From contig JAJEAO010000005.1 of NCBI GenBank assembly GCA_022822745.1, positions 17,831 through 81,830 on the forward strand: a stretch of 64,000 nucleotides of DNA, written 5' to 3'. This DNA is from Acidobacteriota bacterium (GTDB lineage Bacteria > Acidobacteriota > Vicinamibacteria > Marinacidobacterales > Marinacidobacteraceae). The position numbers and the translations under genes were made by a program. Positions 49,720 through 63,033 of this stretch are shown here, piece by piece (position 1 is the stretch's first letter; each line of letters opens with the position of its first letter). A model generated the notes under the pieces. The model did no database searches, was not told the DNA's origin, and saw only the letters and a list, made by a program, of their open reading frames with translations.

Positions 49720-50067
49720 ATGCCGACCGAGCAGCGCGTCGCCCCGGTCCGGGGCGCCCACCGCCTGAGCCCGGAGTTCTGGGCCATCATCGGGATCGGG
49801 GTCACCGTCCTGATCGGCCTGGGGGCCGGGCAGATGGGCATCCGGGACGAGTTTCGGGGCGAGATCAAGGGCGTCCGGGGGGAGATCCAGGGCGTCCGGG
49901 GGGAGGTTCAGAGTCTCCGGGACGATCACCGCGAAGACTTCATGCTGCTCCTTCAGGAGATCAGGGAAGTGAGAGAGTTGGTCGTCGCCAACGGGAAGGT
50001 GCTCGCCCGCATCGAGCAGGCGCTCTTCGGTCCCCCCGCGAAAGTCACGCCCGCTGACCGGGAATAG
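49720..50067 (+). CDS. small membrane-anchored coiled-coil protein
   Basis: AAGGAGG 8 nt upstream of the ATG; one TM (FWAIIGIGVTVLIGLGAG), then heptad repeats GEIKGVR-GEIQGVR-GEVQSLR. Confidence 0.5.
   Translation: MPTEQRVAPVRGAHRLSPEFWAIIGIGVTVLIGLGAGQMGIRDEFRGEIKGVRGEIQGVRGEVQSLRDDHREDFMLLLQEIREVRELVVANGKVLARIEQALFGPPAKVTPADRE
49861..49923 (+). repeat. three tandem 21-bp units (gagatcaagggcgtccggggg and variants) encoding the heptad repeats
   Basis: Direct repeat read from the sequence. Confidence 0.6.
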
Positions 50068-50205
50068 GCCTCGGCGCACCGCGGGCCACGGCGCGGTGTT
50101 TCCGCGCCGGCTCGCGAAGGCCGCAGCTCTCGGCTGAATGCGCCACGGCGCCGTGGCGCGTGGTGGTAGCGTCCCGCCCGGCTTCACGAGGGGGCGGCTG
50201 AATCG

Positions 50206-50940
50206 GTGGACGGGATCCAGGACGGCGACGCGCCGCTGCTCGAACTCGACCGGGTCACGAAGCGGTTCCCGCAGGCGGACGGCTCCCGGCTGACGGTCCT
50301 GCGGGAGGCCTCGCTCACGCTCCGCAGCGGGGCGACCTGCGCGGTGGCCGGTCGCTCCGGCAGCGGCAAGAGCACGCTCCTGCATCTCGCCGCGGGTATC
50401 GAGACCCCGAGCGAGGGCGCGGTGCGGCTCGCGGGACGCGATCTGGGAGCGCTCTCCGATCGGGCCCGCAGCCGCCTGCGCGGCCGGATGGTGGGGCTGG
50501 TCTTCCAGTCCTTCCACCTCCTTCCCTACCTCACCGTGCGGGAGAACGTGCTCCTGCCCGCGCGCATCCACGGCGTGCGCGAAGTCGTCGGGGCGCCGGA
50601 GGGTCGCGCCGACCCCGGCGCCGCCGCCGATCGCCTGCTCCAGGAGGTGGGCCTCCGGGACCGGAGCGGCGAACCGGCCCGAACCCTCTCCGGGGGCGAG
50701 ATGCAGCGGACCGCGATCGCCCGCGCCCTCCTCCTCGGACCGCCGCTGGTCCTCGCCGACGAACCGACGGGCAGCCTCGACGCCGCCTCGGCGCACGCCG
50801 TGACCGACCTCCTGTTCCGGCTCGTCGGCGAGCGTCGCATAGGTCTGATCCTCGCCACGCACGCCCCCGAACTCGCGGCGCGCTGCGCGATCCGGCTCCG
50901 GCTCCTCGCCGGACGCCTCCTGCCCGGACCGGCGGATTGA
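50206..50940 (+). CDS. ABC transporter ATP-binding protein (MacB/LolD-like)
   Basis: Walker A GRSGSGKST, signature LSGGEMQR, Walker B LVLADEPTGSLD. Confidence 0.85.
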   Translation: MDGIQDGDAPLLELDRVTKRFPQADGSRLTVLREASLTLRSGATCAVAGRSGSGKSTLLHLAAGIETPSEGAVRLAGRDLGALSDRARSRLRGRMVGLVFQSFHLLPYLTVRENVLLPARIHGVREVVGAPEGRADPGAAADRLLQEVGLRDRSGEPARTLSGGEMQRTAIARALLLGPPLVLADEPTGSLDAASAHAVTDLLFRLVGERRIGLILATHAPELAARCAIRLRLLAGRLLPGPAD

Positions 50941-53528
50941 TCCGCCTCGCCCTCCGGACGGCGGCGGCCCGGTTCCGCGCCGCCCCGGCGCTGACGGCGC
51001 TCACGGTGGTCGCGATCGCTCTCGGATCGGCGGCGGTGCTCTCGGTCCAGCTCCTGAACCGGGCGTCGCTCGCAGCCCTCGACGCGAGTCTCGAAGCCGT
51101 TTCTCCGGGCGCCGACCTCCGCCTGGAGGCGGTCACGACGGGCGAGGGGATGCTGCCCGACGAGGCCTGGCTCCATGCTCTCGCGCTCCCGGGCGTCGAG
51201 AGCGCGTCGCCGATCGTGCGTCTCCGCCGGGTCGCGGTGAGCGCGGGCGAGGCCTCGCCCGAGGTCCCGCTCGAGATCCCGCTCGAGATCCCTGTCGTCG
51301 GCGTGGATCTGATGTCGGCCGGCTTCGCCTTCGCAGCGGCGCCGGGCGAGGCGGCAACCGCGTTTTCCGCCGACTCCTTCCTCACCGGCGGCGTCACGCT
51401 GCCACGATCCGCGGCGGACCGATTGGGAGTCGTTCCGGGCGAGGAGGTTCGTCTGGACCATCGCGGCCGCATTCGGAGTGTCCCGGTCGCGGGGATCCAC
51501 GGGACGGCGGACGGGGAGGAGACGGCGGGCGAGGCCGCATTCCTGGATCTCGCATGGGCGCAGGCGCTTCGCGGCGCTCCCGGGCTCGACCGGATCGAAA
51601 TCGCGATCCGGGGCGGCGCGGACGCCGCCGCGGTCACGGACGGCCTCGAAACCGCGATCCCGGGGGCGCGGGCCACATCGGGAGCAGCACTCCGGGAAGA
51701 GGGAGCGGATCTCTTCGCCGCGTTCCGACTGACCCTGACGGCGCTCTCGACGGTGAGTCTGCTCGTCGGTTCGTTTCTGGTGTATGCGAGCGTGCGGGCC
51801 GGGCTCGCGGCGCGCCGACGGGAGATCGGCCTCTACCGGTCGCTCGGCGCTCCGGTGCGCTCCGTGGGCGGGCTTCTCGCCGCCGAGGTCGCGCTCACCG
51901 CGCTCGTCGGCGGAGGGATCGGGGTCCCTCTCGGCGCCGCGGCGGCCGGGCTGTCCCTCGGACGGGTCGAGTCCGTGCTCACGAGCTTCTACCTGCTGGA
52001 TCGCATCGGGCAGGTGGGCGTCACGCCGGGCGTCGCGCTGGCATCCGTAGGCCTCGCCCTCGGCGCGGCGCTCCTCGGGGCGCTCCCGGAGATCGTCTCC
52101 GCCGCCCGCCGCCCCCCGGCCGCGCTGCTCGCACCGGGGCGCTCCGTCGCGCTGCGCCTCCGGAAATCGAGTCGGCGGTGGCCGACCTGGGTCGGCGCGG
52201 CGCTCGCGGTCTTCGGCATCTCGGCGCTCGCGCCGGAGTCGTGGCCGTGGCTTCCGGCGTCGCTCGGAGGAGGGTTCGCGGCGGCTGGCGCTGTCCTGCT
52301 GGGGGCCGCCATCCTGTGTCGTCCGGCGCTCGCGCTCCTCTCCCGGCTGTCGGCCCGTCTCGAGGGCCGCTCGCCCTTCGCGCGGGGTCTCCGGGCCGCG
52401 GTGCGGGAGCCCGGCGCCACCGCCCCTCCGGCCACGGCTCTCCTGATCGCAGTGGCCATGCTCGTCGGCGTCTCCTCCATGATCGCGAGTTTCCGCACGA
52501 CGCTGGAGGTGTGGCTCGACGAGACGCTGGTGGCCGACCTCTATGTGGCGCGGCCCGGGCGCTTCGGCGAACCCGGCGGCGTCCCGCTCCCGCTTGCTCC
52601 GGAGAGCGTGGAGATTCTCGCCGGCGATCCGGCGGTGGCCCACCACGACACCCTGCGGGCGCTGCGCGTCCGGCTCGATGGCCGGCTGACCTCGGTCGCG
52701 GGCGTCCGGACGGAGATCCCGGGGGCCGGGGAGCGGTTCTCGTTTCTCGGCGATCGGGACGCGGCTCTCGCCGGTCTGCTCCGCGGGGATGCGCTGGTGT
52801 CCGAACCACTGGCCCGCCGCCTCGAGCTGTCCCCCGGAGCCACGCTCCTCCTGCCGACTCCCGGAGGCGCGAGGCCGGTGCGGGTCGCCGGGGTCTATCG
52901 GGACTACGGCAACGAGGGAGGCGGCGTCATCCTCGATCGGGCCCGGGTGAACGCCCTGTTTCCGACGCCCGGGCCGCCTCCGGTCCACGGCGTGGCGCTG
53001 ACCCTGCGCCCGGAAGCGGAGCCGGCCGCCGTCGCCGCCGGCCTGCGGGAGCGCCTCCCGGTCGCCCTGGACATCGTCGAGAACGATGCGCTGCGAGCTC
53101 GGGCCCTCGTCATCTTCGACGAGACCATGGCGGTCACCGGGCTGCTCCGCCGGTTCGCGCTGTTCATCGCGGCGCTCGGGGTCGCCCTCCTGCTGTGGGC
53201 GCTGGCGCGGGAGCGGGCGGCGGAGACCGCGCTGCTCCGGGCGCTGGGCGCCAGTCGCGCTCAGGCCGCCGGGGAGTTCTTCGGGCGGGGCGCCGTCGTC
53301 TCGCTGGTTGCGCTGGGCCTCGGCGGCGCCGCCGGCGCGGCGCTCTCGGCTCTTCTGGCGCTCGTGGTGAATCCCGCGTGGTTCGGCTGGACGGTGGATC
53401 TCCACTGGCCGATCGGGGCGTTTGCCGGGCAGGCGGCGGTCGTGCTCGTCGCGGGACTTCTCGCCGCCGCCCTGCCGGCTCGCCTCGCCGCGCGGGTCAG
53501 CGCGACCTCCCTGGTGCGCGAACTGTGA
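50937..53528 (+). CDS. ABC transporter permease with duplicated FtsX domains (MacB-like, ~860 aa)
   Basis: TTG start overlapping the ATPase stop (TTGA). Two 4-TM FtsX modules separated by large extracytoplasmic domains. Confidence 0.85.
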   Translation: MIRLALRTAAARFRAAPALTALTVVAIALGSAAVLSVQLLNRASLAALDASLEAVSPGADLRLEAVTTGEGMLPDEAWLHALALPGVESASPIVRLRRVAVSAGEASPEVPLEIPLEIPVVGVDLMSAGFAFAAAPGEAATAFSADSFLTGGVTLPRSAADRLGVVPGEEVRLDHRGRIRSVPVAGIHGTADGEETAGEAAFLDLAWAQALRGAPGLDRIEIAIRGGADAAAVTDGLETAIPGARATSGAALREEGADLFAAFRLTLTALSTVSLLVGSFLVYASVRAGLAARRREIGLYRSLGAPVRSVGGLLAAEVALTALVGGGIGVPLGAAAAGLSLGRVESVLTSFYLLDRIGQVGVTPGVALASVGLALGAALLGALPEIVSAARRPPAALLAPGRSVALRLRKSSRRWPTWVGAALAVFGISALAPESWPWLPASLGGGFAAAGAVLLGAAILCRPALALLSRLSARLEGRSPFARGLRAAVREPGATAPPATALLIAVAMLVGVSSMIASFRTTLEVWLDETLVADLYVARPGRFGEPGGVPLPLAPESVEILAGDPAVAHHDTLRALRVRLDGRLTSVAGVRTEIPGAGERFSFLGDRDAALAGLLRGDALVSEPLARRLELSPGATLLLPTPGGARPVRVAGVYRDYGNEGGGVILDRARVNALFPTPGPPPVHGVALTLRPEAEPAAVAAGLRERLPVALDIVENDALRARALVIFDETMAVTGLLRRFALFIAALGVALLLWALARERAAETALLRALGASRAQAAGEFFGRGAVVSLVALGLGGAAGAALSALLALVVNPAWFGWTVDLHWPIGAFAGQAAVVLVAGLLAAALPARLAARVSATSLVREL

Positions 53529-54712
53529 TGCCGGCTCGGTCACCCGTCGCGCTCGTGCTCGCGACGGCGATCTTCGTCGCGGCTGTCCCGCTCGCCGGCC
53601 AGGAGCCGCAGGAACCCGCGTTCCGGCCCACCGATCCCGGCCACGTGTGGCAGTTTCCGCGCGATCACTGGTTCCACGACGGCTACCGAACCGAGTGGTG
53701 GTACTTCGTCGGATTCCTGTCTGCGGACGACGGAAGCCGCCGCTTCGCCTGGCAGCTCACGCTCTTCCGCAGCGGCCTCCCTCCGGCGGACGGCTCGCCG
53801 GCCCCGTCCCGGTGGGCGGCGAGGAGCACGGCCATGGGGCACCTCGCCCTCGCCGACCTCGATTCGGGAGAGCGCGAGTTCGTCCAGGTGGTGTACCGCG
53901 AGGCGCCGGGGCTCGCCGCCTTCCATCCCTTCCCGGGTGGAGCTGGGGGCGAGATCGCTCGAACCCCGGGTCCGCCGGGCACGGCGTCGCGGTGGGAGCT
54001 GGCCTTCGACCCGGACCGGCGGGCATTCACGATGGCGGCGGCGGACGGTGCCGCCGGAGTCGGTCTGGAGCTGACCGCCCGCATCACCGCTTCGCCGCTC
54101 TTCCACGGTCCCCGCGGCTACCACGAGAAGTCTCCCGGCGGGGGGGCGAGCCTCTACTACAGCCACACCCGGCTCGAGGTCTCGGGCCGGGTTCGCCTCG
54201 GCGGCGCGATGATCGCGGGCTCGGGGACCGGCTGGCTGGACCGCGAATTCGGCTCGTCGTGGCTCGCAGCGGAACAGATCGGCTGGGACTGGTTCGGCCT
54301 CACGCTCGATGACGGCCGGGATCTGATGGTCTATCTCCTCCGCCGCGAGGACGGCTCCGTCTCCTGGGCCAGCGGCACCCTGCGCGACCCGGCGGGAGAC
54401 ACGATCGAGCTGGAGGGCCCGGAAGTCGAGGCTCTCGGGGAGTTCCGTCCGGAGGATCTGGAGGAGGGCGGCCGGCCCTATCCCGCCGGATGGCGCCTCC
54501 GGGTCCGGTCCGAAGAGCTCGACCTGCGCGTGCTGCCGCTCCTCGCCGATCAGGAAAACCGCCTCGGGGCAGGGGAGTCGGGACCCGACATCCCCTACTG
54601 GGAGGGCGCCGCCGAGGTGCTCTCGTGGGACCGGGGGGCCGTTCTCGGTCGGGGCTTCGTCGAGCTCACCGGCTACCGCACACCGATCCCGGCTCTTCTC
54701 GGCGGCCAATAG
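53528..54712 (+). CDS. AttH-like secreted protein (lipocalin-like / CrtC hydroxyneurosporene-synthase-like domain)
   Basis: ATG overlaps the permease stop (TGATG); signal peptide; HWFHDGYRTEWWYFVG block typical of the AttH/CrtC family. The track ORF 51554..54712 is mostly a shadow of the permease. Confidence 0.65.
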   Translation: MPARSPVALVLATAIFVAAVPLAGQEPQEPAFRPTDPGHVWQFPRDHWFHDGYRTEWWYFVGFLSADDGSRRFAWQLTLFRSGLPPADGSPAPSRWAARSTAMGHLALADLDSGEREFVQVVYREAPGLAAFHPFPGGAGGEIARTPGPPGTASRWELAFDPDRRAFTMAAADGAAGVGLELTARITASPLFHGPRGYHEKSPGGGASLYYSHTRLEVSGRVRLGGAMIAGSGTGWLDREFGSSWLAAEQIGWDWFGLTLDDGRDLMVYLLRREDGSVSWASGTLRDPAGDTIELEGPEVEALGEFRPEDLEEGGRPYPAGWRLRVRSEELDLRVLPLLADQENRLGAGESGPDIPYWEGAAEVLSWDRGAVLGRGFVELTGYRTPIPALLGGQ

Positions 54713-54756
54713 AATCGTCGCCGGGCGGCCCCAGCCGACTCCCACCGAGCAGCGCC

Positions 54757-55971
54757 ATGAGGATCGAGAGCATCGAGCTCCGCAACTACCGGGTCTTTCG
54801 TCGGGCGCGGCTCGATCACCTGCCCCGGATGGCGGTCGTCGTCGGGGCCAACGGCTCGGGAAAGAGCACGCTGTTCGATGCCTTCAGCTTCCTGAAGGAT
54901 GCCCTCCAGGACAACGCCCGGGTGGCGGTCGCCCGGCGGGGAGGGTTCCGGGAACTCGTGAGTCGGGGCGAAAGGGGCCCGATCGCCGTGATTCTCAAGT
55001 TTCGGGAGAGCGGAGGTCGGCTGGCCACCTACTCGCTCGAGGTCGGCGAGGCGGGCGGGAGAGTCGTCGTCGAGCGCGAGATCCTGCGCTACCGGCGCGG
55101 CCAGAAGGGCAAGCCGTGGCACTTCGTGGACTTCCGTCGAGGGGAGGGGACCGCCATCACGAACGAGGCTCTCTATGGGCAGACGGGTGTGGAAGAGGAG
55201 CGTGAGGAGTTCTCCCTGGAAGACCCGAGCATCCTCGCGATCAAGGGCCTCGGCCAGTTCCGCAGTTTCCCCGTCGTCGCCGAGTTTCGGAACCTGATCG
55301 AGAACTGGCACATTTCCGACTTCCGGATCGCCGATGCTCGGGTGAGTTCCGAGGCGGGATTCGCGAATCATCTGTCGGCGCGAGGCGACAACGTGGCGCT
55401 TGTAGCCCAGCATCTCCACGAATCGCACCCGGACCGATTCGAGGCGGTCCTTCGAGCGATGCGGCTGCGGGTTCCCGGAGTGCGGGATGTCGAAGTCCGA
55501 TCCACCGAGGATGGCCGGATGGTGCTGCGGTTCCGCGACGGGGAGTTCAAGGACCCGTTCATCGCCCGATACGTCTCCGACGGGACGATCAAGATGTTCG
55601 CGTACCTGGTTCTGCTCCACGATCCCAAGCCGCATCCCTGCCTGGCGGTGGAGGAGCCGGAGAACCACCTGTATCCGGTGTTGCTCCGCGAGCTTTGCGA
55701 GGAGTTCCGCGACTACGCCGGCGGCGGAGGACAGGTGTTCGTGTCAACCCACTCGCCCGAATTCCTGAACGCGGTGGAGCTCGACGAGATCTACTGGATG
55801 GGAAGACGCGGTGGGTTTTCGATGGTGCGTAGAGCCTCCGAAGACGAGATCCTCCGGAACCTGATCGAGGCGGGCGATGTTCCGGGCGACCTCTGGCGAC
55901 GGGGCTGCTTCGACGATGTCCGTGCCTGGCAGGGCGCATCGCCGGTCGTTCCATGGGCCGAGGTGACGTGA
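54757..55971 (+). CDS. AAA_21/OLD-family-like ATPase (SMC/RecF-type ABC ATPase fold), no partner gene
   Basis: Walker A VVVGANGSGKSTLFDAF; D-loop/Walker B LAVEEPENHLYP; H-loop STHSPEFL. Stop overlaps the ldcA ATG (TGATG). Confidence 0.7.
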   Translation: MRIESIELRNYRVFRRARLDHLPRMAVVVGANGSGKSTLFDAFSFLKDALQDNARVAVARRGGFRELVSRGERGPIAVILKFRESGGRLATYSLEVGEAGGRVVVEREILRYRRGQKGKPWHFVDFRRGEGTAITNEALYGQTGVEEEREEFSLEDPSILAIKGLGQFRSFPVVAEFRNLIENWHISDFRIADARVSSEAGFANHLSARGDNVALVAQHLHESHPDRFEAVLRAMRLRVPGVRDVEVRSTEDGRMVLRFRDGEFKDPFIARYVSDGTIKMFAYLVLLHDPKPHPCLAVEEPENHLYPVLLRELCEEFRDYAGGGGQVFVSTHSPEFLNAVELDEIYWMGRRGGFSMVRRASEDEILRNLIEAGDVPGDLWRRGCFDDVRAWQGASPVVPWAEVT

Positions 55972-56990
55972 TGACCCGACGTTCTCTGCTTGCTCTCGTT
56001 GGCTCCATCGGGCTCGGTTGGAGCCGAGGCACAGCAGCTCAGCTTCCCGGCACGCTCACGCGTCCGCCACGGCTTCGCGACGGGGACGTGATCGGGTTGA
56101 CCAGTCCGGCGACGGCGGCCTGGGAGACAGACCCGATGGAGGTGTTCATGGACGCCTTCCGCGAGATCGGCCTCGAACCGCGGCTCGGGCCGAACTTCTA
56201 CGGGAGGCGCGGCTACTTCGCGGGGACCGACGAGCAGCGGGCGTCCGACATCATGGGCTTCTTCGAGGATCCCGGAGTGCGGGGCATCTTCGCCCGCGGC
56301 GGCTGGGGCTCGGCGCGCGTCCTCCCGCTCCTCGACTACGACGTGATCCGGGCGAACCCGAAGGTGCTCCTCGGCTACTCCGACGCCACCGCCCTCATCA
56401 CCGGCGTCCATGCGAAGACGGGCCTGATCACGATGCACGGTCCCGGCCCCGGAAACCGGTTCTCCACCCAGCACTTCCAGAGTGTGCTGATGGAAGGAGA
56501 CGCGGATCTGCTGGTGAACCTGGCCGCCGACCCGGGCGACCACATCGTGAACCGCGAGCACCGCACTCGCACGATCACGCCTGGCGTCGCGCGGGGCCGG
56601 CTCGTCGGCGGCAACCTGACCGTCCTCTCCGCGATCGTGGGCTCGGACTACCTGCCCGACTTCACCGGGGCCATCCTGTTCCTCGAAGATGTGGACGAAG
56701 CGGTGTACCGGGTGGATCGGATGCTCACGACGCTCCGCCTCGCGGGCCTCCTCGACCGAATCGCAGGCTTCGTCTTCGGTCGCTGCACCAACTGCGACCC
56801 GTCTTCGGGCTTCGGCTCGCTGACGCTCGAAGAGGTCCTCGCGGACCACATCGCTTCGCTCGGCATCCCCGCCTTCCGGGGCAGCATGATCGGCCACATC
56901 CCCGAGCAGTTCACCCTCCCCATCGGCGGCCTCGCCGAAGTGGATGCCGACGCCGGAACGATCCGCCTTCTCGAACCCGCCGTCATCTGA
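55971..56990 (+). CDS. ldcA: LD-carboxypeptidase (peptidase S66)
   Basis: Tat/Sec-like signal MTRRSLLALVGS; nucleophile block LLGYSDATALI; catalytic His region near the C-terminus. Confidence 0.8.
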   Translation: MTRRSLLALVGSIGLGWSRGTAAQLPGTLTRPPRLRDGDVIGLTSPATAAWETDPMEVFMDAFREIGLEPRLGPNFYGRRGYFAGTDEQRASDIMGFFEDPGVRGIFARGGWGSARVLPLLDYDVIRANPKVLLGYSDATALITGVHAKTGLITMHGPGPGNRFSTQHFQSVLMEGDADLLVNLAADPGDHIVNREHRTRTITPGVARGRLVGGNLTVLSAIVGSDYLPDFTGAILFLEDVDEAVYRVDRMLTTLRLAGLLDRIAGFVFGRCTNCDPSSGFGSLTLEEVLADHIASLGIPAFRGSMIGHIPEQFTLPIGGLAEVDADAGTIRLLEPAVI

Positions 56991-57020
56991 CCGATCTCTC
57001 CACCCGATGCCGATTGCCAT

Positions 57021-58757
57021 TTGGGCCGAGCGCTTACGATCCCTGCTTCTCGCTCCGAATCCCCCCAGCCGATCGTGACCAGCCCGCAAGGTTCCAATTC
57101 GGCTTCGTCAGGCGACGCCGTGACGGAGGCGGTGCTCGCGGTCCGCGATGGCCTTGAGCGAGAGATCTACCAGCGCAGGTCCGACGTTGCCAGCGCGGTG
57201 GGCCGGCTCCTTACGGCGCTTGGATGGGATGTCTTCGATCCGAGGCAGGTGAGTCGCAACTACCCGACCGGCAACCAGCGGCTCGATTTCGCACTCTTCC
57301 CTACCGCGGATCGGCCCCTCGTGGTCATCGACACCAGGAAGGGCACCGGTCCGCGAGTTGGCGGCGCCACGATCCTGCTCGAGTTCTGTCGCGGCCAGGA
57401 CATTCCGCTTGCTGTGCTCACGAATGCCCGCAGGTGGCTCCTCTACTCCGCGAGTGGCAGCGCCGGGAATGGTGACGGCTGCTTCCTCCAGCTCGATCTT
57501 CTCGACGAGGCACCGCCGGATGTCGCTCAGCACTTGACACGCCATCTCGCACGGAGTCAAGTGGAGTCTGGCCGCGCACAGGCCGCGGCCGAGGCAGCCC
57601 TGGAAGAGATCCGCGGGCAGAGCCGAGCTGCCCGCTCCTTCGAGCCGGTCCTCAGGACGATGGTGGAGGGGCCGGACGACTCTCTAGTCGATCTGTTCTG
57701 TGCGCGCGTGGAAGAGACGAGCGGAGCTCGGCCCGCTCGCGACGCTGCGTCCGTGTTCCTCGCGCGGACACTCGACGTCACAACCTCGTCCTCAAGGTCG
57801 CAAACAGAGACACGCTCTGCGAAGTCCGCTCCGCCGTCATCAGACGGATCGCGAAGTCCGGAGCTGACCATGTTCGGCCGGACGTCTCATCCGTCATCCG
57901 GTAAGGACCTTCTGGTCGATGTGTTCGCCGAGCTGGCGCGGCGCGACGAGGGCTTCTGTCACCGGTTTGCGTCGGCGCACCGGGGTCGGACCCGGCGTTA
58001 CTTGGCGCGCGCCCGAGCTCGGCTCTACCCGGGGAATCCCGAGTTCGCCAGGAAGTTTGCAGAAGAGCTACCGGGCGGCTGGTGGATCGCAACCCAGAAC
58101 AGTAATCGAGGAAAGCGCCAACTCATTCAGAAGGCGTGCGCGGTGGCGGGCGTCGGATTCGGAACCGACGTCATCGTTCGGCTCCCGACGATTCGGCGAA
58201 GCGCGGGGAGCAGAAGTAGTCGGGGATCGAAGGTCGCGACACCGCCGGCGTCTGGAGGAGGAGGCGTCGCCCCCAAGTCTCCGCAGCCTGGTCAGATCAG
58301 ACCGACGGGGACCGGCCGTTTCGTGCTCACTCTCGAAGGAAGTGTCCGACGATTCCCGAGCGGAGTGGCAGCCCTGGTGGCCGCGTTCGAGTGGTTCGCA
58401 TCCCGGGATGCCGGATTCCTGGAGCGGTTCGCCCGTGAAGTCCGAGGGACTTCCGTCCACTACGTGGCGCGCGATCGAATGCGGATGTACCTGAGCCGAC
58501 CGAAGGCAGGGCCGAAGAACTCGGCGGCCCTGTCCCGTGGCTGGTGGATCGCCACGCAGAACAGCAGTGCCCAGAAGAAGAGTCTGATCCGACGCGCCTG
58601 CGAACTGGCGGGCCTGAAGTGGGGACAGGACGTTCTCGTGGATTTCCCGGCCCATCACCGCTATCGCAAGAAAAAGGGCCCTACCGCCAAGCACTCCTCC
58701 AACGAATCCGCCGAGGCGATTCTCGAGGCTCTCCGTTCGCGCCGCAGCGTCCGCTGA
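57021..58757 (+). CDS. HsdR_N-like PD-(D/E)xK nuclease-fold protein with a tandemly duplicated C-terminal domain of unknown function
   Basis: N-terminal block RLDFALF...LVVIDTRKG...LAVLTNARRWLLY matches the type I HsdR N-terminal / Mrr-like PD-(D/E)xK pattern. Two ~105-aa repeats share F.RFA...Y.AR.R.YL...GWWIATQNS..K..LI..AC..AG. Start uncertain (TTG 57021, or GTG 57072 / 57117). GC3 clearly lower than in native genes. Confidence 0.6.
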   Translation: MGRALTIPASRSESPQPIVTSPQGSNSASSGDAVTEAVLAVRDGLEREIYQRRSDVASAVGRLLTALGWDVFDPRQVSRNYPTGNQRLDFALFPTADRPLVVIDTRKGTGPRVGGATILLEFCRGQDIPLAVLTNARRWLLYSASGSAGNGDGCFLQLDLLDEAPPDVAQHLTRHLARSQVESGRAQAAAEAALEEIRGQSRAARSFEPVLRTMVEGPDDSLVDLFCARVEETSGARPARDAASVFLARTLDVTTSSSRSQTETRSAKSAPPSSDGSRSPELTMFGRTSHPSSGKDLLVDVFAELARRDEGFCHRFASAHRGRTRRYLARARARLYPGNPEFARKFAEELPGGWWIATQNSNRGKRQLIQKACAVAGVGFGTDVIVRLPTIRRSAGSRSSRGSKVATPPASGGGGVAPKSPQPGQIRPTGTGRFVLTLEGSVRRFPSGVAALVAAFEWFASRDAGFLERFAREVRGTSVHYVARDRMRMYLSRPKAGPKNSAALSRGWWIATQNSSAQKKSLIRRACELAGLKWGQDVLVDFPAHHRYRKKKGPTAKHSSNESAEAILEALRSRRSVR

Positions 58758-58775
58758 TTGACGCGAGGAGCTCGC

Positions 58776-61238
58776 ATGCAAGCACAGCACATTGACTTTC
58801 TTGAACTCCTGGATGGGAAGGTGCACTATGTCGTGCCCCGATGGCAGCGTCGCTACCGATGGGGCTACACCGACATCGAGCGCCTCGTGGAGGATCTGGT
58901 AACGATCGCTGCCGTGGATCGTCCCCACGCGGCGCACTATGGGGGGACGCTTCTCACGTTCACGGAAACAGGGGCTGCGGGCGTGGTCAAGACCATCAGA
59001 GTCGTGGACGGCCAGCAGCGCCTCACGACGGTGAGCCTGCTTCTGGACTGTATTTCGGATGCGATCGGCCCGGACGGGAGCATTGGCGAGTGGACTGCGG
59101 CAGAGATTCGTGACTGCCTGTTCAACCCCAAGGTCAAGCGCGGTCCCAAGCGTCTCAAGCTGAGGCTGCAGACGGGGGACGCCGAGGAGTATCGACGCTG
59201 CCTCAACGGAGATCGGAATGGGCCCGGGACGGTGGCGGCAGCGTGGAGGATCGCCCGCAGGTTGTTGGTGCGCAAGAGGGGCGCGGCGTCAGTGCTTCGC
59301 GGACTCCAGCGGTTTCGGGTCGTCAGCATCGGGCTCGAATCGCCCGAGGATCCACAACAGATCTTCGAGAGTCTGAATGCCACCGGCCGTCCGCTGACCG
59401 AGACCGAGAAAATCAAGAACTGGATCCTCATGGGCCTGTCGGACGTGGAGCAGGAGGAGGTGCACGATGACTCGTGGTTGGCCTTCGAGCGGCGCCTCGG
59501 GGCCCGGCATACGACGGAGCCCTCTGACCTGTTCTTCCGCGACTTCCTGCGGTGGAAGACCGGGCAGGTTCGCGGGACGAGCCGAGTCTACGAGGACTTC
59601 CGGCGATGGGCGGTCGGCCGGCAGCTCGACCGGAGCAGGCCAGCGCTCTGTCGGAGACTGGCACGGCTCGCCGGACTCTACGGGAAACTCACGGGGGCCA
59701 ACGGGTCGTACGCGGACGATGGCGTGGAGAAGCAGCTCGTTCACCTGCGTGACATGGGGTTGCATGTCCACCGACCGATGACCCTGCGGCTCCTCCACGA
59801 TGCGTCACAGAACGCGGGCCCGGTCTTGACCGGTGACGAGCTGGCTGCCGTGCTCGCCGGGGTCGGCACCTGGCTCACGCGCCTCTGGCTTGCGGATCGG
59901 CCGTTGAATGCCGTAAACCGCGCCGCGACCCACCTCGCCAAGGCGGGGGGGCCGGGAGAGAGTGACGCGCCGGTGGAATACTGGCTGGAGCGGATTCGCC
60001 GCCTGCAAAACACCCGAGCGGAAGTTCCGGATGACGACGCCGTGCGTCAGGGGATCCGTACTCGGAAGGCGTACGGAGGCAGGTCGACTGGCTCTGCGTC
60101 CGCGGTCTTGTGGGCGCTCGTGGACCACGAGCACGGAAAGGAGCGCCTGTCACGGCAAGGCATAACGATCGAGCACGTGATGCCGCAGAGACTCACGGCG
60201 GGCTGGCGGCGCGACCTAGGACCGACCGCCGAGGAGGTTCACGGTCTCTACCGGGATCGGCTGGCGAATCTGACGCTGACGGGCTACAACCCGGAGCTTG
60301 GCGCGCAGCAGTTCGAGTCGAAGCGGGCGCTGTATGAGAAGAGTGCCATCCACATGACGCGGCGCGTGGCGCGCTCCGACCAGTGGGGCAGAAACGAGAT
60401 GGAGCAGCGCGCGGAAGATCTGACCGAGCGAGCCCTGAAACTATGGAGATGGAGTGGGCCGGGGCACGAGCGCTCCCCGGACTCCTCCGCACTGCGCTGG
60501 AGGATCGATCAGGAGCCGTGGAGGACCGAAATGGCCGCCAGTCAGATGGTGCTGAACGTGGTGTCCGCCTTGCTGACCATGGATCCGGCGAACGCGCAGA
60601 AGCTCACTGGACCCGCAGTCACGGTGGACCTGCATTCGGCCGGTGATCTGCCCAAGGGGCATAGCCAGACCCTTCGTTCCGTGCCGGGACATGCGGGCTA
60701 CGTTCTGTATCCCTACGACCAGAACCACCCGCAGAGTGCGAGGCGTTGTGAGGAGTTCGGCCAGCGGTGCGATGTTCGGGTCGAAGTGGAGCATCGCAGA
60801 CAGAGTCATCCGGAGAGCCTCTGGCAATTCATCAAGAGGCGAACCGGCAGACTGCCTGGGCAGAAGGACACCTGGAAGGGCCCCTCCCAGTGGACTGGAC
60901 CTTACGAGCCACTCGGGGACTGGATTCTCGTGTACGTAGGGAACCCCGATTGGATCTGGTTGTTCATCCGCGCCGATGAGGGCGAGGCAACCCCTGAGCG
61001 ATCAGCGAGAATGCTGCGCTATTCGCGAGCGATCCGTTCCGAGATGGGAGACCAGACTCCGGGATGGGAGACGCAGGAAAAGGGGGCAGCGCACGGACGC
61101 TCTCTATCGGTCAGGCGGGCTTGGGATCGGGATGACCGGGATGCCTGGCCTGAAGCCGTGGACTGGCTCGCCGAACAGCTCGGACGCATGCGACAAATCC
61201 TGGAGCGGATTGGGGCGGCGGCGGACCGAGCCGAGTGA
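58776..61238 (+). CDS. GmrSD-family type IV (modification-dependent) restriction endonuclease, DUF262 + DUF1524
   Basis: GAGGAG 6 nt upstream of the ATG. DUF262 motif VVDGQQRLTTV; C-terminal His-Me finger region ITIEHVMPQ (DUF1524). 820 aa; lower GC3. Confidence 0.85.
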   Translation: MQAQHIDFLELLDGKVHYVVPRWQRRYRWGYTDIERLVEDLVTIAAVDRPHAAHYGGTLLTFTETGAAGVVKTIRVVDGQQRLTTVSLLLDCISDAIGPDGSIGEWTAAEIRDCLFNPKVKRGPKRLKLRLQTGDAEEYRRCLNGDRNGPGTVAAAWRIARRLLVRKRGAASVLRGLQRFRVVSIGLESPEDPQQIFESLNATGRPLTETEKIKNWILMGLSDVEQEEVHDDSWLAFERRLGARHTTEPSDLFFRDFLRWKTGQVRGTSRVYEDFRRWAVGRQLDRSRPALCRRLARLAGLYGKLTGANGSYADDGVEKQLVHLRDMGLHVHRPMTLRLLHDASQNAGPVLTGDELAAVLAGVGTWLTRLWLADRPLNAVNRAATHLAKAGGPGESDAPVEYWLERIRRLQNTRAEVPDDDAVRQGIRTRKAYGGRSTGSASAVLWALVDHEHGKERLSRQGITIEHVMPQRLTAGWRRDLGPTAEEVHGLYRDRLANLTLTGYNPELGAQQFESKRALYEKSAIHMTRRVARSDQWGRNEMEQRAEDLTERALKLWRWSGPGHERSPDSSALRWRIDQEPWRTEMAASQMVLNVVSALLTMDPANAQKLTGPAVTVDLHSAGDLPKGHSQTLRSVPGHAGYVLYPYDQNHPQSARRCEEFGQRCDVRVEVEHRRQSHPESLWQFIKRRTGRLPGQKDTWKGPSQWTGPYEPLGDWILVYVGNPDWIWLFIRADEGEATPERSARMLRYSRAIRSEMGDQTPGWETQEKGAAHGRSLSVRRAWDRDDRDAWPEAVDWLAEQLGRMRQILERIGAAADRAE

Positions 61239-61283
61239 ATTGGCCATGCGTGAGGCGGACGCATCGGCGCCGCTTGATACCGG

Positions 61284-61565
61284 TCAGGGCCGAGATGGTG
61301 TTCGGGGGCGGGCCCGGCTCGAGTCGTAGGAGGCCTGCCGTCGGAGCCAGAAGGCCGTGTTGGACCACCCGGCCCTCTCCAGACGCGCCGCCACATCCGG
61401 TGAAATGGCGGCGTGGCCACCCAGGATCCGCGAGAGTGCGTCGCGGGCGACGCCGAGCATCTGCGCCGCTTCGTCCACGCTGAGACCCATGGCGTCCATG
61501 CAGTTCTCGCGGATACTCCGACCGGGGTGGGGTGGGTGGCGCATGGTGATGGCCGGTTGCCTCAC
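61284..61565 (-). CDS. HigA-family HTH antitoxin
   Basis: MRHPPHPGRSIRENCMDAMGLSVDEAAQMLGVARDALSRILGG...FWL matches the HigA (antidote) family. First ATG gives an ATGA overlap with the upstream ORF; an alternative ATG lies 21 nt downstream. Confidence 0.7.
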   Translation of the reverse strand: MRQPAITMRHPPHPGRSIRENCMDAMGLSVDEAAQMLGVARDALSRILGGHAAISPDVAARLERAGWSNTAFWLRRQASYDSSRARPRTPSRP

Positions 61566-61810
61566 TTCTTCCAGACCTTGGCCACATCGGGCTTCACGGT
61601 GACGTATGCCGCCAGCTTGCGTCCGTCGGCGATCTGAGCCGAAGCGTTCGGAGGACCAGCCAGTGCGGCGATGCGAGCAGCGTTCGTGCCTGCTTCCATG
61701 ATGTCCCGATCGAAGAGCGTTCCGTACAACTGCTCGTGCGCCGTCTTGTGGCCGGCCGGTGCGGAGCGTCGCATCGTTTGGAACTTGGTGACGAGGTCTG
61801 ATTCGGTCAT
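61562..61810 (-). CDS. hypothetical 82-aa protein, candidate toxin partner of the HigA-like gene
   Basis: Position and 4-nt overlap only. The sequence does not resemble canonical HigB/RelE. Confidence 0.35.
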   Translation of the reverse strand: MTESDLVTKFQTMRRSAPAGHKTAHEQLYGTLFDRDIMEAGTNAARIAALAGPPNASAQIADGRKLAAYVTVKPDVAKVWKK

Positions 61811-62171
61811 CGGTAGAGTCTCCGGGGTCGCGGCGAGGTGGTCGTGGCCGGAGTTCGCCGACTCTTTCCGGCTGGCGTTCCGCTGTGGCTCTGGTCGTAC
61901 AGCTCCGTACCGGGCGATGTCATCCTCTTCGAACAGAGCTCGTGTCTTGTCGATGTTCCGGCGCGGGCCGGAGCCGACCGGCGGCCCGTCGAGCGGCCCG
62001 TCCCAGTGGGAGCAATGGAGGAAGTGTACTGCGCGCCGTGGCGAATCAGTGCGTCATTCCGGCCGTGACGCGGCTTTCGGGGGCACCTCGCGCCGCCGTC
62101 TGGTTCCCGCTTTCGGGGGCGTCTCAGGGTGAGTGGATGCGGTTGGCCGCTCGATCCCGGAGACGGCTCGT

Positions 62172-62675
62172 TCAGCTCGGGTCCGGGTCGTGCAGCGTGT
62201 GGAGGAAGCGCTCGAACCGCTGCAGGTCGCGCAGGACGAGAGGGTGGACCTGATGGAGCTTGGCGATCAGGAAGTCCATGCGATCCCAGTCGTACTCCAT
62301 CTCGAAGTAGTAGCGCTTGAAGTGCCGGAAACGCAGCAGTTCCAGGAGCAGCGGCAGCGCCTCGTCCGACACCGCCGCCACGCGGACGCCCTCGATCTCG
62401 AGGTTCATTCGCTCGAGAAGATCGCGATGCCAACGCTCAGGCCGAAGCCGGTTCTCGAAGTGCTGCGAGATGCGCACGAAGGCAGTTTCCAGGCAGGTGT
62501 AGTAGTTCTCCAGGAGGCTTGCGGCAATCAGGGCCGAGACCGGTGTCCTTCCGAGGCGCGGAATCTCGTCGGCGAGGGCGCTCTCGAGCGCGTCGCGGAC
62601 CTGGTCGAGCCGTCGCCGGTGGAGCCGGACCTGGGCGAGCAGCTCAGCCGTCGCCGCGTTCATGGACCAGCGCAC
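62172..62675 (-). CDS. HEPN-like nucleotidyltransferase substrate-binding protein (HI0074-like)
   Basis: 167 aa, all-helical. Putative R-x(4-6)-H in ELLRFRHFKRYY. Overlaps the upstream MNT gene by 32 nt. Confidence 0.6.
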   Translation of the reverse strand: MRWSMNAATAELLAQVRLHRRRLDQVRDALESALADEIPRLGRTPVSALIAASLLENYYTCLETAFVRISQHFENRLRPERWHRDLLERMNLEIEGVRVAAVSDEALPLLLELLRFRHFKRYYFEMEYDWDRMDFLIAKLHQVHPLVLRDLQRFERFLHTLHDPDPS

Positions 62676-63033
62676 CTCGGGTGCGGATCTGTTCGGCGAT
62701 TTCCTTCGGCACCTTCTCCATCTCGATCACGTCCACCGGGAGGGTCGTGCCGTCCATCGCGATCCCGAGCACGCGGAAGAACTCGGCGGGGCCAGAGAGT
62801 CCCTCGACGGCGAGATCGATATCCGAGATCTCGCTGAAACGCGACCGATCGAGGAGCGATCCCCACTGGTAGATGCGGCGCGGGTTCACCTCCTCGACGA
62901 TCGCTGCGATGATCTCTTTCGCATCCCGGTTCGCCCGCTCGAAACGGGCCTCGATCCGGGCTTGGCGCCGTTCCTCCTTGCGTGCGAGGAAGGCTCGCGC
63001 CTGATCGAGATCAATGCCGAACTCGCTGTTCAC
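62644..63033 (-). CDS. minimal nucleotidyltransferase (MNT, Pol-beta superfamily)
   Basis: GS...D.D motif in YQWGSLLDRSRFSEISDIDLAVEG. Confidence 0.75.
   Translation of the reverse strand: MNSEFGIDLDQARAFLARKEERRQARIEARFERANRDAKEIIAAIVEEVNPRRIYQWGSLLDRSRFSEISDIDLAVEGLSGPAEFFRVLGIAMDGTTLPVDVIEMEKVPKEIAEQIRTRGALVHERGDG

Follow-up and report, generated by a model that had tools for sequence, protein, structure and literature searches.

A GmrSD gene and a degenerate HsdR_N and SeqA-like gene, probably of separate origin, in a strain-variable cassette of an Acidobacteriota genome

Introduction

DpnI is the textbook nuclease that reads adenine methylation, and to our knowledge few enzymes read the methylation state of adenine and also cut DNA. 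SeqA proper binds hemimethylated GATC behind the replication fork (PMC4738411, PMC12707154). Iyer, Zhang and Aravind (2016, PMC4738411) also note the SeqA domain as a fusion with RAMA in the setting of restriction-modification. These fusions are a precedent for a SeqA domain as a discriminator of N6-methyladenine (m6A) in proteins of the restriction-modification type, the partner in that paper's passages on SeqA being RAMA and not an HsdR_N-type nuclease. Among the GmrSD type IV restriction enzymes, no add-on domain accompanies DUF262 and DUF1524 more often than DUF4268, and restriction genes are generally enriched around GmrSD genes (Machnicka et al. 2015, PMC4619093). Here we describe two neighbouring genes, A and B, on a 64,000-nucleotide stretch from an Acidobacteriota bacterium (GenBank assembly GCA_022822745.1, contig JAJEAO010000005.1, positions 17,831 to 81,830 of the forward strand), the whole of which is called the window below and is numbered from its own first letter. 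An earlier note on this DNA had proposed that A, with a nuclease fold and a duplicated domain, is the dedicated partner of B, a GmrSD enzyme, in an undescribed variant of type IV restriction. Our comparisons indicate that the two are probably genes of separate origin, resident together in a hotspot of defence and toxin-antitoxin genes without forming a dedicated system, and that A is most likely either nuclease-dead or a relic.

Results

A strain-variable cassette behind a conserved LD-carboxypeptidase gene

Genes A and B are both open reading frames (ORFs) of the plus strand and together fill positions 57021-61238. Gene A (57120-58757, plus strand) encodes 545 amino acids (aa) with a degenerate HsdR_N-like domain, a helical linker and two SeqA-C-like domains; its longest ORF begins at a TTG and covers 57021-58757 (578 aa), the stop is the TGA at 58755-58757, and the start taken here, the GTG at 57120, is that of the identical public protein P0001 (545 aa) and is backed by the family alignment. 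Gene B (58776-61238, plus strand) encodes a single-chain type IV restriction enzyme of the GmrSD family and matches the public 820-aa protein P0010; its longest ORF opens at the TTG at 58758 (826 aa), the real start being the ATG at 58776. The spacing of 18 bp given in the earlier note is confirmed, and the gap holds a Shine-Dalgarno sequence of gene B, GAGGAG, read off the sequence at 58765-58770 (plus strand). A simple scan of the gap found no promoter-like and no terminator-like site. Since the gap is so short, carries a Shine-Dalgarno sequence and has no terminator, A and B are likely to be co-transcribed on a shared transcript.

The strain-variable cassette with A and B occupies 56994-61202, its left bound being the stop of the LD-carboxypeptidase gene. 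In blastn, contig L008 is 98.2% identical to the window over 50000-56993, where homology stops, and it resumes at 61203-61975 with 80% identity; in a four-way DNA alignment of the window, L009, L001 and L008, similarity is lost exactly at the LD-carboxypeptidase stop. The two-gene island suggested earlier is therefore real in the sense that the segment varies between strains and is bounded exactly by the loss of homology to a nearly identical relative. Five contigs share the left flank ABC_tran-MacB/FtsX-AttH-AAA_21-LD-carboxypeptidase and then diverge. In the window, the LD-carboxypeptidase gene is followed by A and GmrSD, then by HTH_3/HTH_73, HepT/MNT and an aminotransferase. L093, a complete 3.88-Mb genome, has an intact two-copy A, then HTH_3/HigB and PIN/RHH, with GmrSD absent; L001 has a one-copy A, then AbiEi/AbiEii; L008 has only part of A, which lacks the nuclease domain, is joined to SLFN_AlbA_2 and stands before a 108-aa gene and an Ion_trans-AlbA_2 gene. 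In L009, GmrSD stands directly after the LD-carboxypeptidase gene (67% aa and 69.6% nucleotide identity), A is absent and the right flank is as in the window. The same locus thus carries A without GmrSD in L093, L001 and L008, and GmrSD without A in L009. Moreover, in the two loci with GmrSD gene A is inactivated (window) or absent (L009), and the two loci with an intact A are without GmrSD; this alternation fits replacement or redundancy, and is an anecdote, five loci being far too few to test it. Neither direct nor inverted repeats flank the cassette, and no tRNA lies beside it, so that exchange probably proceeds via flanking homology.

The base composition of the pair points the same way less sharply. 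At third codon positions, A has a G+C content (GC3) of 0.74 and B one of 0.78, as compared with about 0.86 for the window and with a mean of 0.854 (standard deviation 0.062) for the 39 other window genes, which were called heuristically. The low GC3 pointed out in the earlier note is thus there, but with offsets of about -1.9 standard deviations for A and about -1.25 for B it is reduced rather than extreme, and the comparison with related contigs is the stronger evidence of an island.

The repeated domain of gene A resembles the C-terminal domain of SeqA

The tandem repeat in A is real: copy 1 (57858-58187, plus strand, aa 247-356; GRTR and WWIATQNS motifs) and copy 2 (58317-58649, plus strand, aa 400-510) are each about 110 aa long and share 48 of 108 residues (44%; BLASTP E=3e-29) without a gap. 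The whole of A scores 35.6 bits with Pfam SeqA (PF03925; gathering score 25.5), the best stretch being aa 468-527 of the 578-aa ORF, in copy 2; each copy alone matches at about 20 bits. The NCBIfam SeqA model NF008389 is matched by the C-terminal region only (2.2e-6; 27.8 bits, cut-off 185), and A is therefore, by this score, not a SeqA orthologue. When a profile of the domain built from 8 sequences was compared with the PDB, the five best matches were SeqA structures (3sk7, 1j3e, 1iu3, 1lrr and 3fmt; E=3e-4 to 0.015) and the match spanned positions 8-96 of 109; phmmer of full-length A against the PDB gave noise-level matches only, with SeqA at E=0.51. The AlphaFold2 model of A has a mean predicted local distance difference test score of 75.5, with confident domains and disordered linkers. 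In a Foldseek search of the PDB with this model, the top match was 1lrr_A, the complex of E. coli SeqA with hemimethylated DNA (probability 1.0, root-mean-square deviation 2.4 Å), and V. cholerae SeqA (3sk7_A) was also found (probability 1.0, 1.8 Å, target template modelling score 0.65), the target scores of the two chains ranging over 0.60-0.65. Because Pfam, the profile search against the PDB and Foldseek agree, the repeat is to be regarded, by profile and by model, as a SeqA C-terminal-like domain. This fits well with the earlier guess of a modified-base reader. The readers considered as candidates in its place, namely SRA, EVE, YTH and winged-helix domains, were rejected, no such Pfam or fold matches having been found.

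The likeness to SeqA of E. coli and V. cholerae extends to the fold and to the motifs G-R-T-R and W-x-x-T-N/Q-x-S...K. The two differ in that the N-terminal oligomerisation domain of SeqA has no counterpart in A, where a restriction-type nuclease domain and a helical linker stand instead, and that the DNA-binding domain is duplicated in window A. Copy 1 retains the G-R-T-R of SeqA residues 115-118, while copy 2 has G-T-S-V. In SeqA, the bases of hemimethylated GATC are contacted by R116, T117, N150 and N152 (E. coli numbering), and Guarne and co-workers reportedly found in 2002 that N150 and N152 read the methylated base pair. The positions aligned to N150 and N152 hold Q and S in window A, and N/H and S in the family. 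DNA binding by the SeqA-like domains is a well supported prediction from profiles and model; specificity for methylated GATC is a lead only.

The nuclease domain of gene A has lost its active site

The N-terminal domain of A (57120-57509, plus strand, aa 1-130) has a PD-(D/E)xK fold of the HsdR_N type with degenerate active-site residues, and it is followed by a long helical linker (57510-57797, plus strand, aa 131-226; DSSP helices 132-226 on the AlphaFold2 model) that can be aligned across the family. Foldseek matched the domain to the nuclease domains of HsdR (3h1t and 2w00), DrdV (7lvv) and BpuSI (3s1s), with which it shares the fold; A differs from HsdR of type I and from type IIG/IIL enzymes in having no helicase/translocase and no methyltransferase modules, and the window copy gives no HSDR_N score, as Pfam HSDR_N does not match it even at E<=10. 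A role of A as part of a type I system was rejected, as no HsdM, HsdS or helicase genes lie nearby.

The family consensus was taken from 155 sequences. Of the residues listed, only D56 (149/155) is kept in window A. E20 (145/155) is replaced by R, E71 (147/155) by D, K73 (144/155) by R, Q85 (145/155) by I, Y89 (145/155) by F, D102 (125/155) by N, G103 (151/155) by A and R120 (141/155) by G; thus the family motif E71-V-K73 reads D71-T72-R73. The closest relatives keep every residue listed. Among them is P0131/P0279, a two-copy orthologue that shares 45% identity and the C-terminal helix with window A. The block LDFALF…VIDTRKG had been read in the earlier note as a PD-(D/E)xK site; homology to HsdR_N stands, and the site itself is degenerate here, with D...D-T-R in place of D...E-V-K. 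With almost all of the family's catalytic residues gone, the idea of A as a nuclease partner is not supported.

How far the decay of A goes is shown by the identities along the protein. Over the nuclease domain, identity among the relatives is 63-66% but only 35-44% between them and window A, whereas in the linker and both SeqA-like domains window A (33-54%) diverges about as much as the relatives do among themselves (33-60%). Since the divergence is confined to the nuclease domain, these alignments argue for a loss of catalysis with DNA binding retained rather than for the uniform decay of a pseudogene. Most likely, window A still binds DNA but is nuclease-dead, or else it is a half-decayed relic in the course of being lost, as far as can be judged from the alignments. 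The fullest form of decay, in which A is a functionless relic whose ORF is open only because stops are rare in DNA of 70% GC, accords with the loss of at least 8 near-invariant family residues from the nuclease core, with a GC3 that is the lowest of the local genes, with the many spurious ORFs of more than 300 aa in the window, and with the deletion (L009) or truncation (L008) of A at the same site in relatives. However, besides the domain-specific divergence, gene A is free of frameshifts and internal stops, all three of its domains are folded confidently in the AlphaFold2 model, and the identical gene pair is present in independent metagenome assemblies, so that we consider a plain relic unlikely.

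Gene B encodes an ordinary GmrSD enzyme

Gene B carries a GmrSD_N (DUF262) domain with the DGQQR motif at 58803-59426 (plus strand; Pfam PF03235, residues 16-223 of the 826-aa ORF; E=8.2e-25, 88.5 bits against a cut-off of 33.2) and a GmrSD_C (DUF1524) His-Me finger domain with the EHVMPQ motif at 60027-60428 (plus strand; Pfam PF07510, residues 424-557; E=1.6e-21, 77.1 bits against a cut-off of 23), the translation reading VVDGQQRLTT and ITIEHVMPQ, respectively. Its recognition as a GmrSD type IV enzyme in the earlier note was thus correct. The C-terminal extension of about 255 aa (60465-61235, plus strand) has a weak similarity to DUF4268 (Pfam E=0.0015-0.0034, under the gathering score) and is kept at full length across the subfamily. 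In PADLOC, B matched the Orf5 model PDLC02693 at 3.7e-93 and also the HEC-06, SspE and mREase_IV models. B has more than 2400 homologues; the 120 best are about 810-870 aa long and share 53-67% identity with B over 96-100% (mostly 99%) of its length. As the best homologues align over nearly the full length, the whole architecture, C-terminal extension included, is on this evidence that of a common and widespread stand-alone GmrSD subfamily of about 820 aa. The nearest solved structures are distant DUF262 proteins only. Compared with GmrSD, Eco94GmrSD and BrxU, B is alike in both domains, in the DGQQR and EHVMPQ motifs, in the single-chain fusion and in the DUF4268-like add-on, and there is no essential difference; B is an ordinary enzyme of an already known kind. 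By family membership, its DUF262 domain would sense modified DNA and hydrolyse nucleoside triphosphate and its His-Me domain would cut, and B is expected to cut modified foreign DNA unaided, like its characterised relatives.

Gene A belongs to a large family of HsdR_N and SeqA-like proteins

A word-indexed homologue search returned 9 relatives of A only, and an exhaustive profile search far more, namely 8714 proteins at E<=0.001 and 1436 representatives of 50%-identity clusters at E<=1e-30. The top 150 matches are nearly all 350-385 aa long and cover the profile from end to end. In the family, an HsdR_N-type PD-(D/E)xK nuclease is joined through a helical linker and then a proline-rich tether to 1-5 SeqA-C-like domains. 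Canonical members match Pfam HSDR_N and HSDR_N_2, passing the former with 33-36 bits (threshold 25.1). When 155 top members were aligned with hmmalign to the hidden Markov model (HMM) of the C-terminal domain, the SeqA-like domain was present in 140 (one copy in 123, two in 16 and five in 1). The reader domain has thus been duplicated repeatedly in the family, and not in the window alone. The member with five SeqA-like domains behind the nuclease domain is P0135 (874 aa), and in several two-copy members, such as P0166, the copies are near-identical, which points to recent and independent duplications.

The family is large, uncharacterised, spread across phyla and mostly chromosomal. Among 185,579 species-representative genomes, 339 pattern-matched relatives of A were found, in Bacteroidota/Rhodothermales, Proteobacteria, Gemmatimonadota, Chloroflexota, Acidobacteriota, Cyanobacteria and other phyla. 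In tblastn, P0131 had no match in collections of plasmids and phages, and with a canonical Rhizobium member the plasmids gave only distant matches, to the N-terminal domain; in IMG/VR, a single match was found among 2.9 million viral contigs. The family is thus not typically borne on mobile elements. PADLOC gave no meaningful model for it, only marginal matches of the N-terminal domain (E about 1e-3) to type I and type IIG restriction-modification models, and public annotation goes no further than 'HsdR N-terminal domain protein'. A literature search on SeqA combined with nuclease, HsdR or type IV yielded no description of an HsdR_N and SeqA-like family.

In 80 further A-family loci, no recurrent partner was seen in the neighbouring genes (68 upstream, 67 downstream and 111 second neighbours) among the 25 commonest families of each tally, for which gene calls were heuristic. 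The commonest neighbour family is DNA polymerase I, in 5 of the 67 loci, which reflects synteny in Rhodothermales, and most of the others are housekeeping genes; the only DNA methyltransferase among those listed is one enzyme of the MmeI type. A different conserved arrangement may exist in one metagenomic lineage (L003-L007, e.g. L003 8001-11921), where the A homologue is directly followed by a paralogous HSDR_N gene (341-352 aa) and by a third gene of 542-546 aa without any Pfam match.

These surroundings raise the question whether the family has a housekeeping role tied to methylation state, such as MutH-like strand discrimination or the nicking of hemimethylated sites once replication has passed. 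Such a role would suit the binding of hemimethylated GATC behind the fork described for SeqA in the papers cited above, the mostly housekeeping neighbours with their DNA polymerase I synteny, the absence from plasmid and phage collections with the lone viral match, and the absence from PADLOC. Nevertheless, the spread of the family is patchy, as the count of relatives among species genomes shows; no mismatch-repair gene or methyltransferase is a conserved neighbour among the families listed; and in the clade of the window gene A sits in a variable hotspot of toxin-antitoxin and defence genes, where it is freely lost, truncated or inactivated. We therefore regard a housekeeping role as decidedly unlikely.

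Genes A and B are not a conserved pair

The earlier note had named conservation of the pair across genomes as one check on its proposal, and a first gene routinely found without GmrSD neighbours as a refutation of it; A does prove to occur routinely without GmrSD. Beyond the shared locus, where relatives split the two genes, no A-like neighbour was found beside other close GmrSD homologues (L010-L012), and no GmrSD beside other A homologues (L002-L007). When six-frame translations of 80 further A-family loci from many phyla were searched with a GmrSD-family HMM, there was one adjacent GmrSD, in L054, and two more loci gave weaker signals within 6 kb. In L054 (5998-8919), from Latescibacterota, a canonical one-copy A gene has a GmrSD gene (573 aa, confirmed by Pfam) 114 nucleotides downstream on its own strand.

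It could still be supposed that A is a dedicated sensor or adaptor of the GmrSD enzyme, its SeqA-like domains finding DNA that is methylated or modified in another way, and A recruiting or licensing B, in a two-component type IV system. The same strand, the 18-bp gap without a terminator, the swapping of A and B as one block relative to the 98%-identical strain, and the independent adjacency in L054 are in line with such a role, and a dead nuclease with conserved reader domains would suit a non-catalytic adaptor. However, the syntenic relatives carry A alone in three cases and GmrSD alone in one; the GmrSD subfamily of about 820 aa runs to thousands, and none of the 4 inspected homologue loci (three proteins) has an A-like gene; and 77-79 of the 80 A-family loci have no GmrSD within 6 kb. 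Furthermore, the A homologue of L054 is canonical and passes the HSDR_N threshold, and so is not of the degenerate adaptor form, and the enrichment of restriction genes near GmrSD (PMC4619093) makes an occasional adjacency expected. A dedicated adaptor is thus quite improbable.

Genes around the cassette

To the right of the cassette lie, directly, an HTH_3/Xre-like and HTH_73 gene pair (61284-61810, minus strand), which is only 80% identical to L008, and then a toxin-antitoxin pair of HepT-like and MNT (Polbeta nucleotidyltransferase) genes (62172-63033, minus strand). As the HTH pair is at 80% while the left flank is at 98%, the variable zone runs past gene B. To the left, at 54757-55971 (plus strand), is the AAA_21/AAA_15 ATPase gene, matched by PADLOC HEC-01B at 1.6e-166. 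In L001 the ATPase gene has a DUF4276 gene behind it that the window lacks, and in L009 and L093 the ATPase itself is cut down to an 86-aa fragment; this has the look of a second defence module in decay within the clade. In L093 (11475-15641), a local duplication takes in the module of AttH fragment, AAA_21 fragment and LD-carboxypeptidase, and also a PIN/RHH pair, which suggests repeated recombination at the hotspot. And in L008 (8001-10832), the end of the A linker and one SeqA-like domain are joined to SLFN_AlbA_2, the SeqA-like module being reused there without a nuclease.

Discussion

We favour the reading that 56994-61202 is a swappable cassette directly downstream of the conserved LD-carboxypeptidase gene, in which two genes of separate origin have probably come to lie side by side. 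In this cassette, B would act alone, and A would be a nuclease-dead bivalent DNA-binding protein, or a relic, offering no active partner nuclease to GmrSD. Some points weigh against this reading or against the view of the family given below. The syntenic comparison rests on four or five relatives, and the neighbour tallies on heuristic gene calls and the commonest families listed. A and B have been exchanged as one block relative to the near-identical L008, and a second, unrelated adjacency of A and GmrSD exists in L054; on account of these two facts a facultative interaction of A and B keeps a small chance. With D71, R73 and the neighbouring K74, window A might conceivably still be catalytic. 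As for the family, nuclease activity and methyl-dependence are predictions for all of its members, and the changes at the positions of N150 and N152 may mean a specificity for something other than GATC, or for something other than methylation altogether.

For the canonical members of the A family, the architecture suggests a solitary endonuclease dependent on modification state, in the manner of DpnI and MspJI. The family is read as modification-dependent because it has PD-(D/E)xK catalytic residues, no methyltransferase nearby and a SeqA-like reader. The SeqA-like domain would read a short, probably adenine-methylated site, the tethered nuclease would cut nearby, and one or two reader domains would engage one or two sites, as SeqA dimers do. 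With DpnI and MspJI the family shares a PD-(D/E)xK domain tethered to a reader and a solitary occurrence with no adjacent methyltransferase; it differs from them in that the reader is SeqA-like and not a winged helix or SRA domain, that the activity is a predicted one, and that the window copy is without the catalytic residues. An undescribed class of m6A-state-dependent endonucleases is therefore a possibility that we put forward tentatively, at somewhat less than even chance. By comparison, it is highly improbable that window A, being nuclease-dead, has taken on a new role as a bivalent SeqA-like sensor of methylation state, co-expressed with GmrSD and gating or targeting it, which, if true, would be a two-component type IV system coupling an m6A-type reader to a GmrSD effector. 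The endonuclease class is the weaker novelty of the two but the more probable one.

The proposed two-gene variant of type IV restriction is thus unsupported, and it is the A family rather than the locus that is worth pursuing. The locus itself is a hotspot in motion, since across five related genomes gene A is found intact, duplicated, truncated and fused, inactivated by point changes, or deleted. What is new is a large family across phyla that joins a restriction-type nuclease to 1-5 SeqA-like domains and for which PADLOC has no model. If its canonical members are indeed methyl-dependent, the family would be a new source of m6A-dependent nucleases, and would represent a second biological use of the SeqA fold, beyond replication control in gammaproteobacteria.

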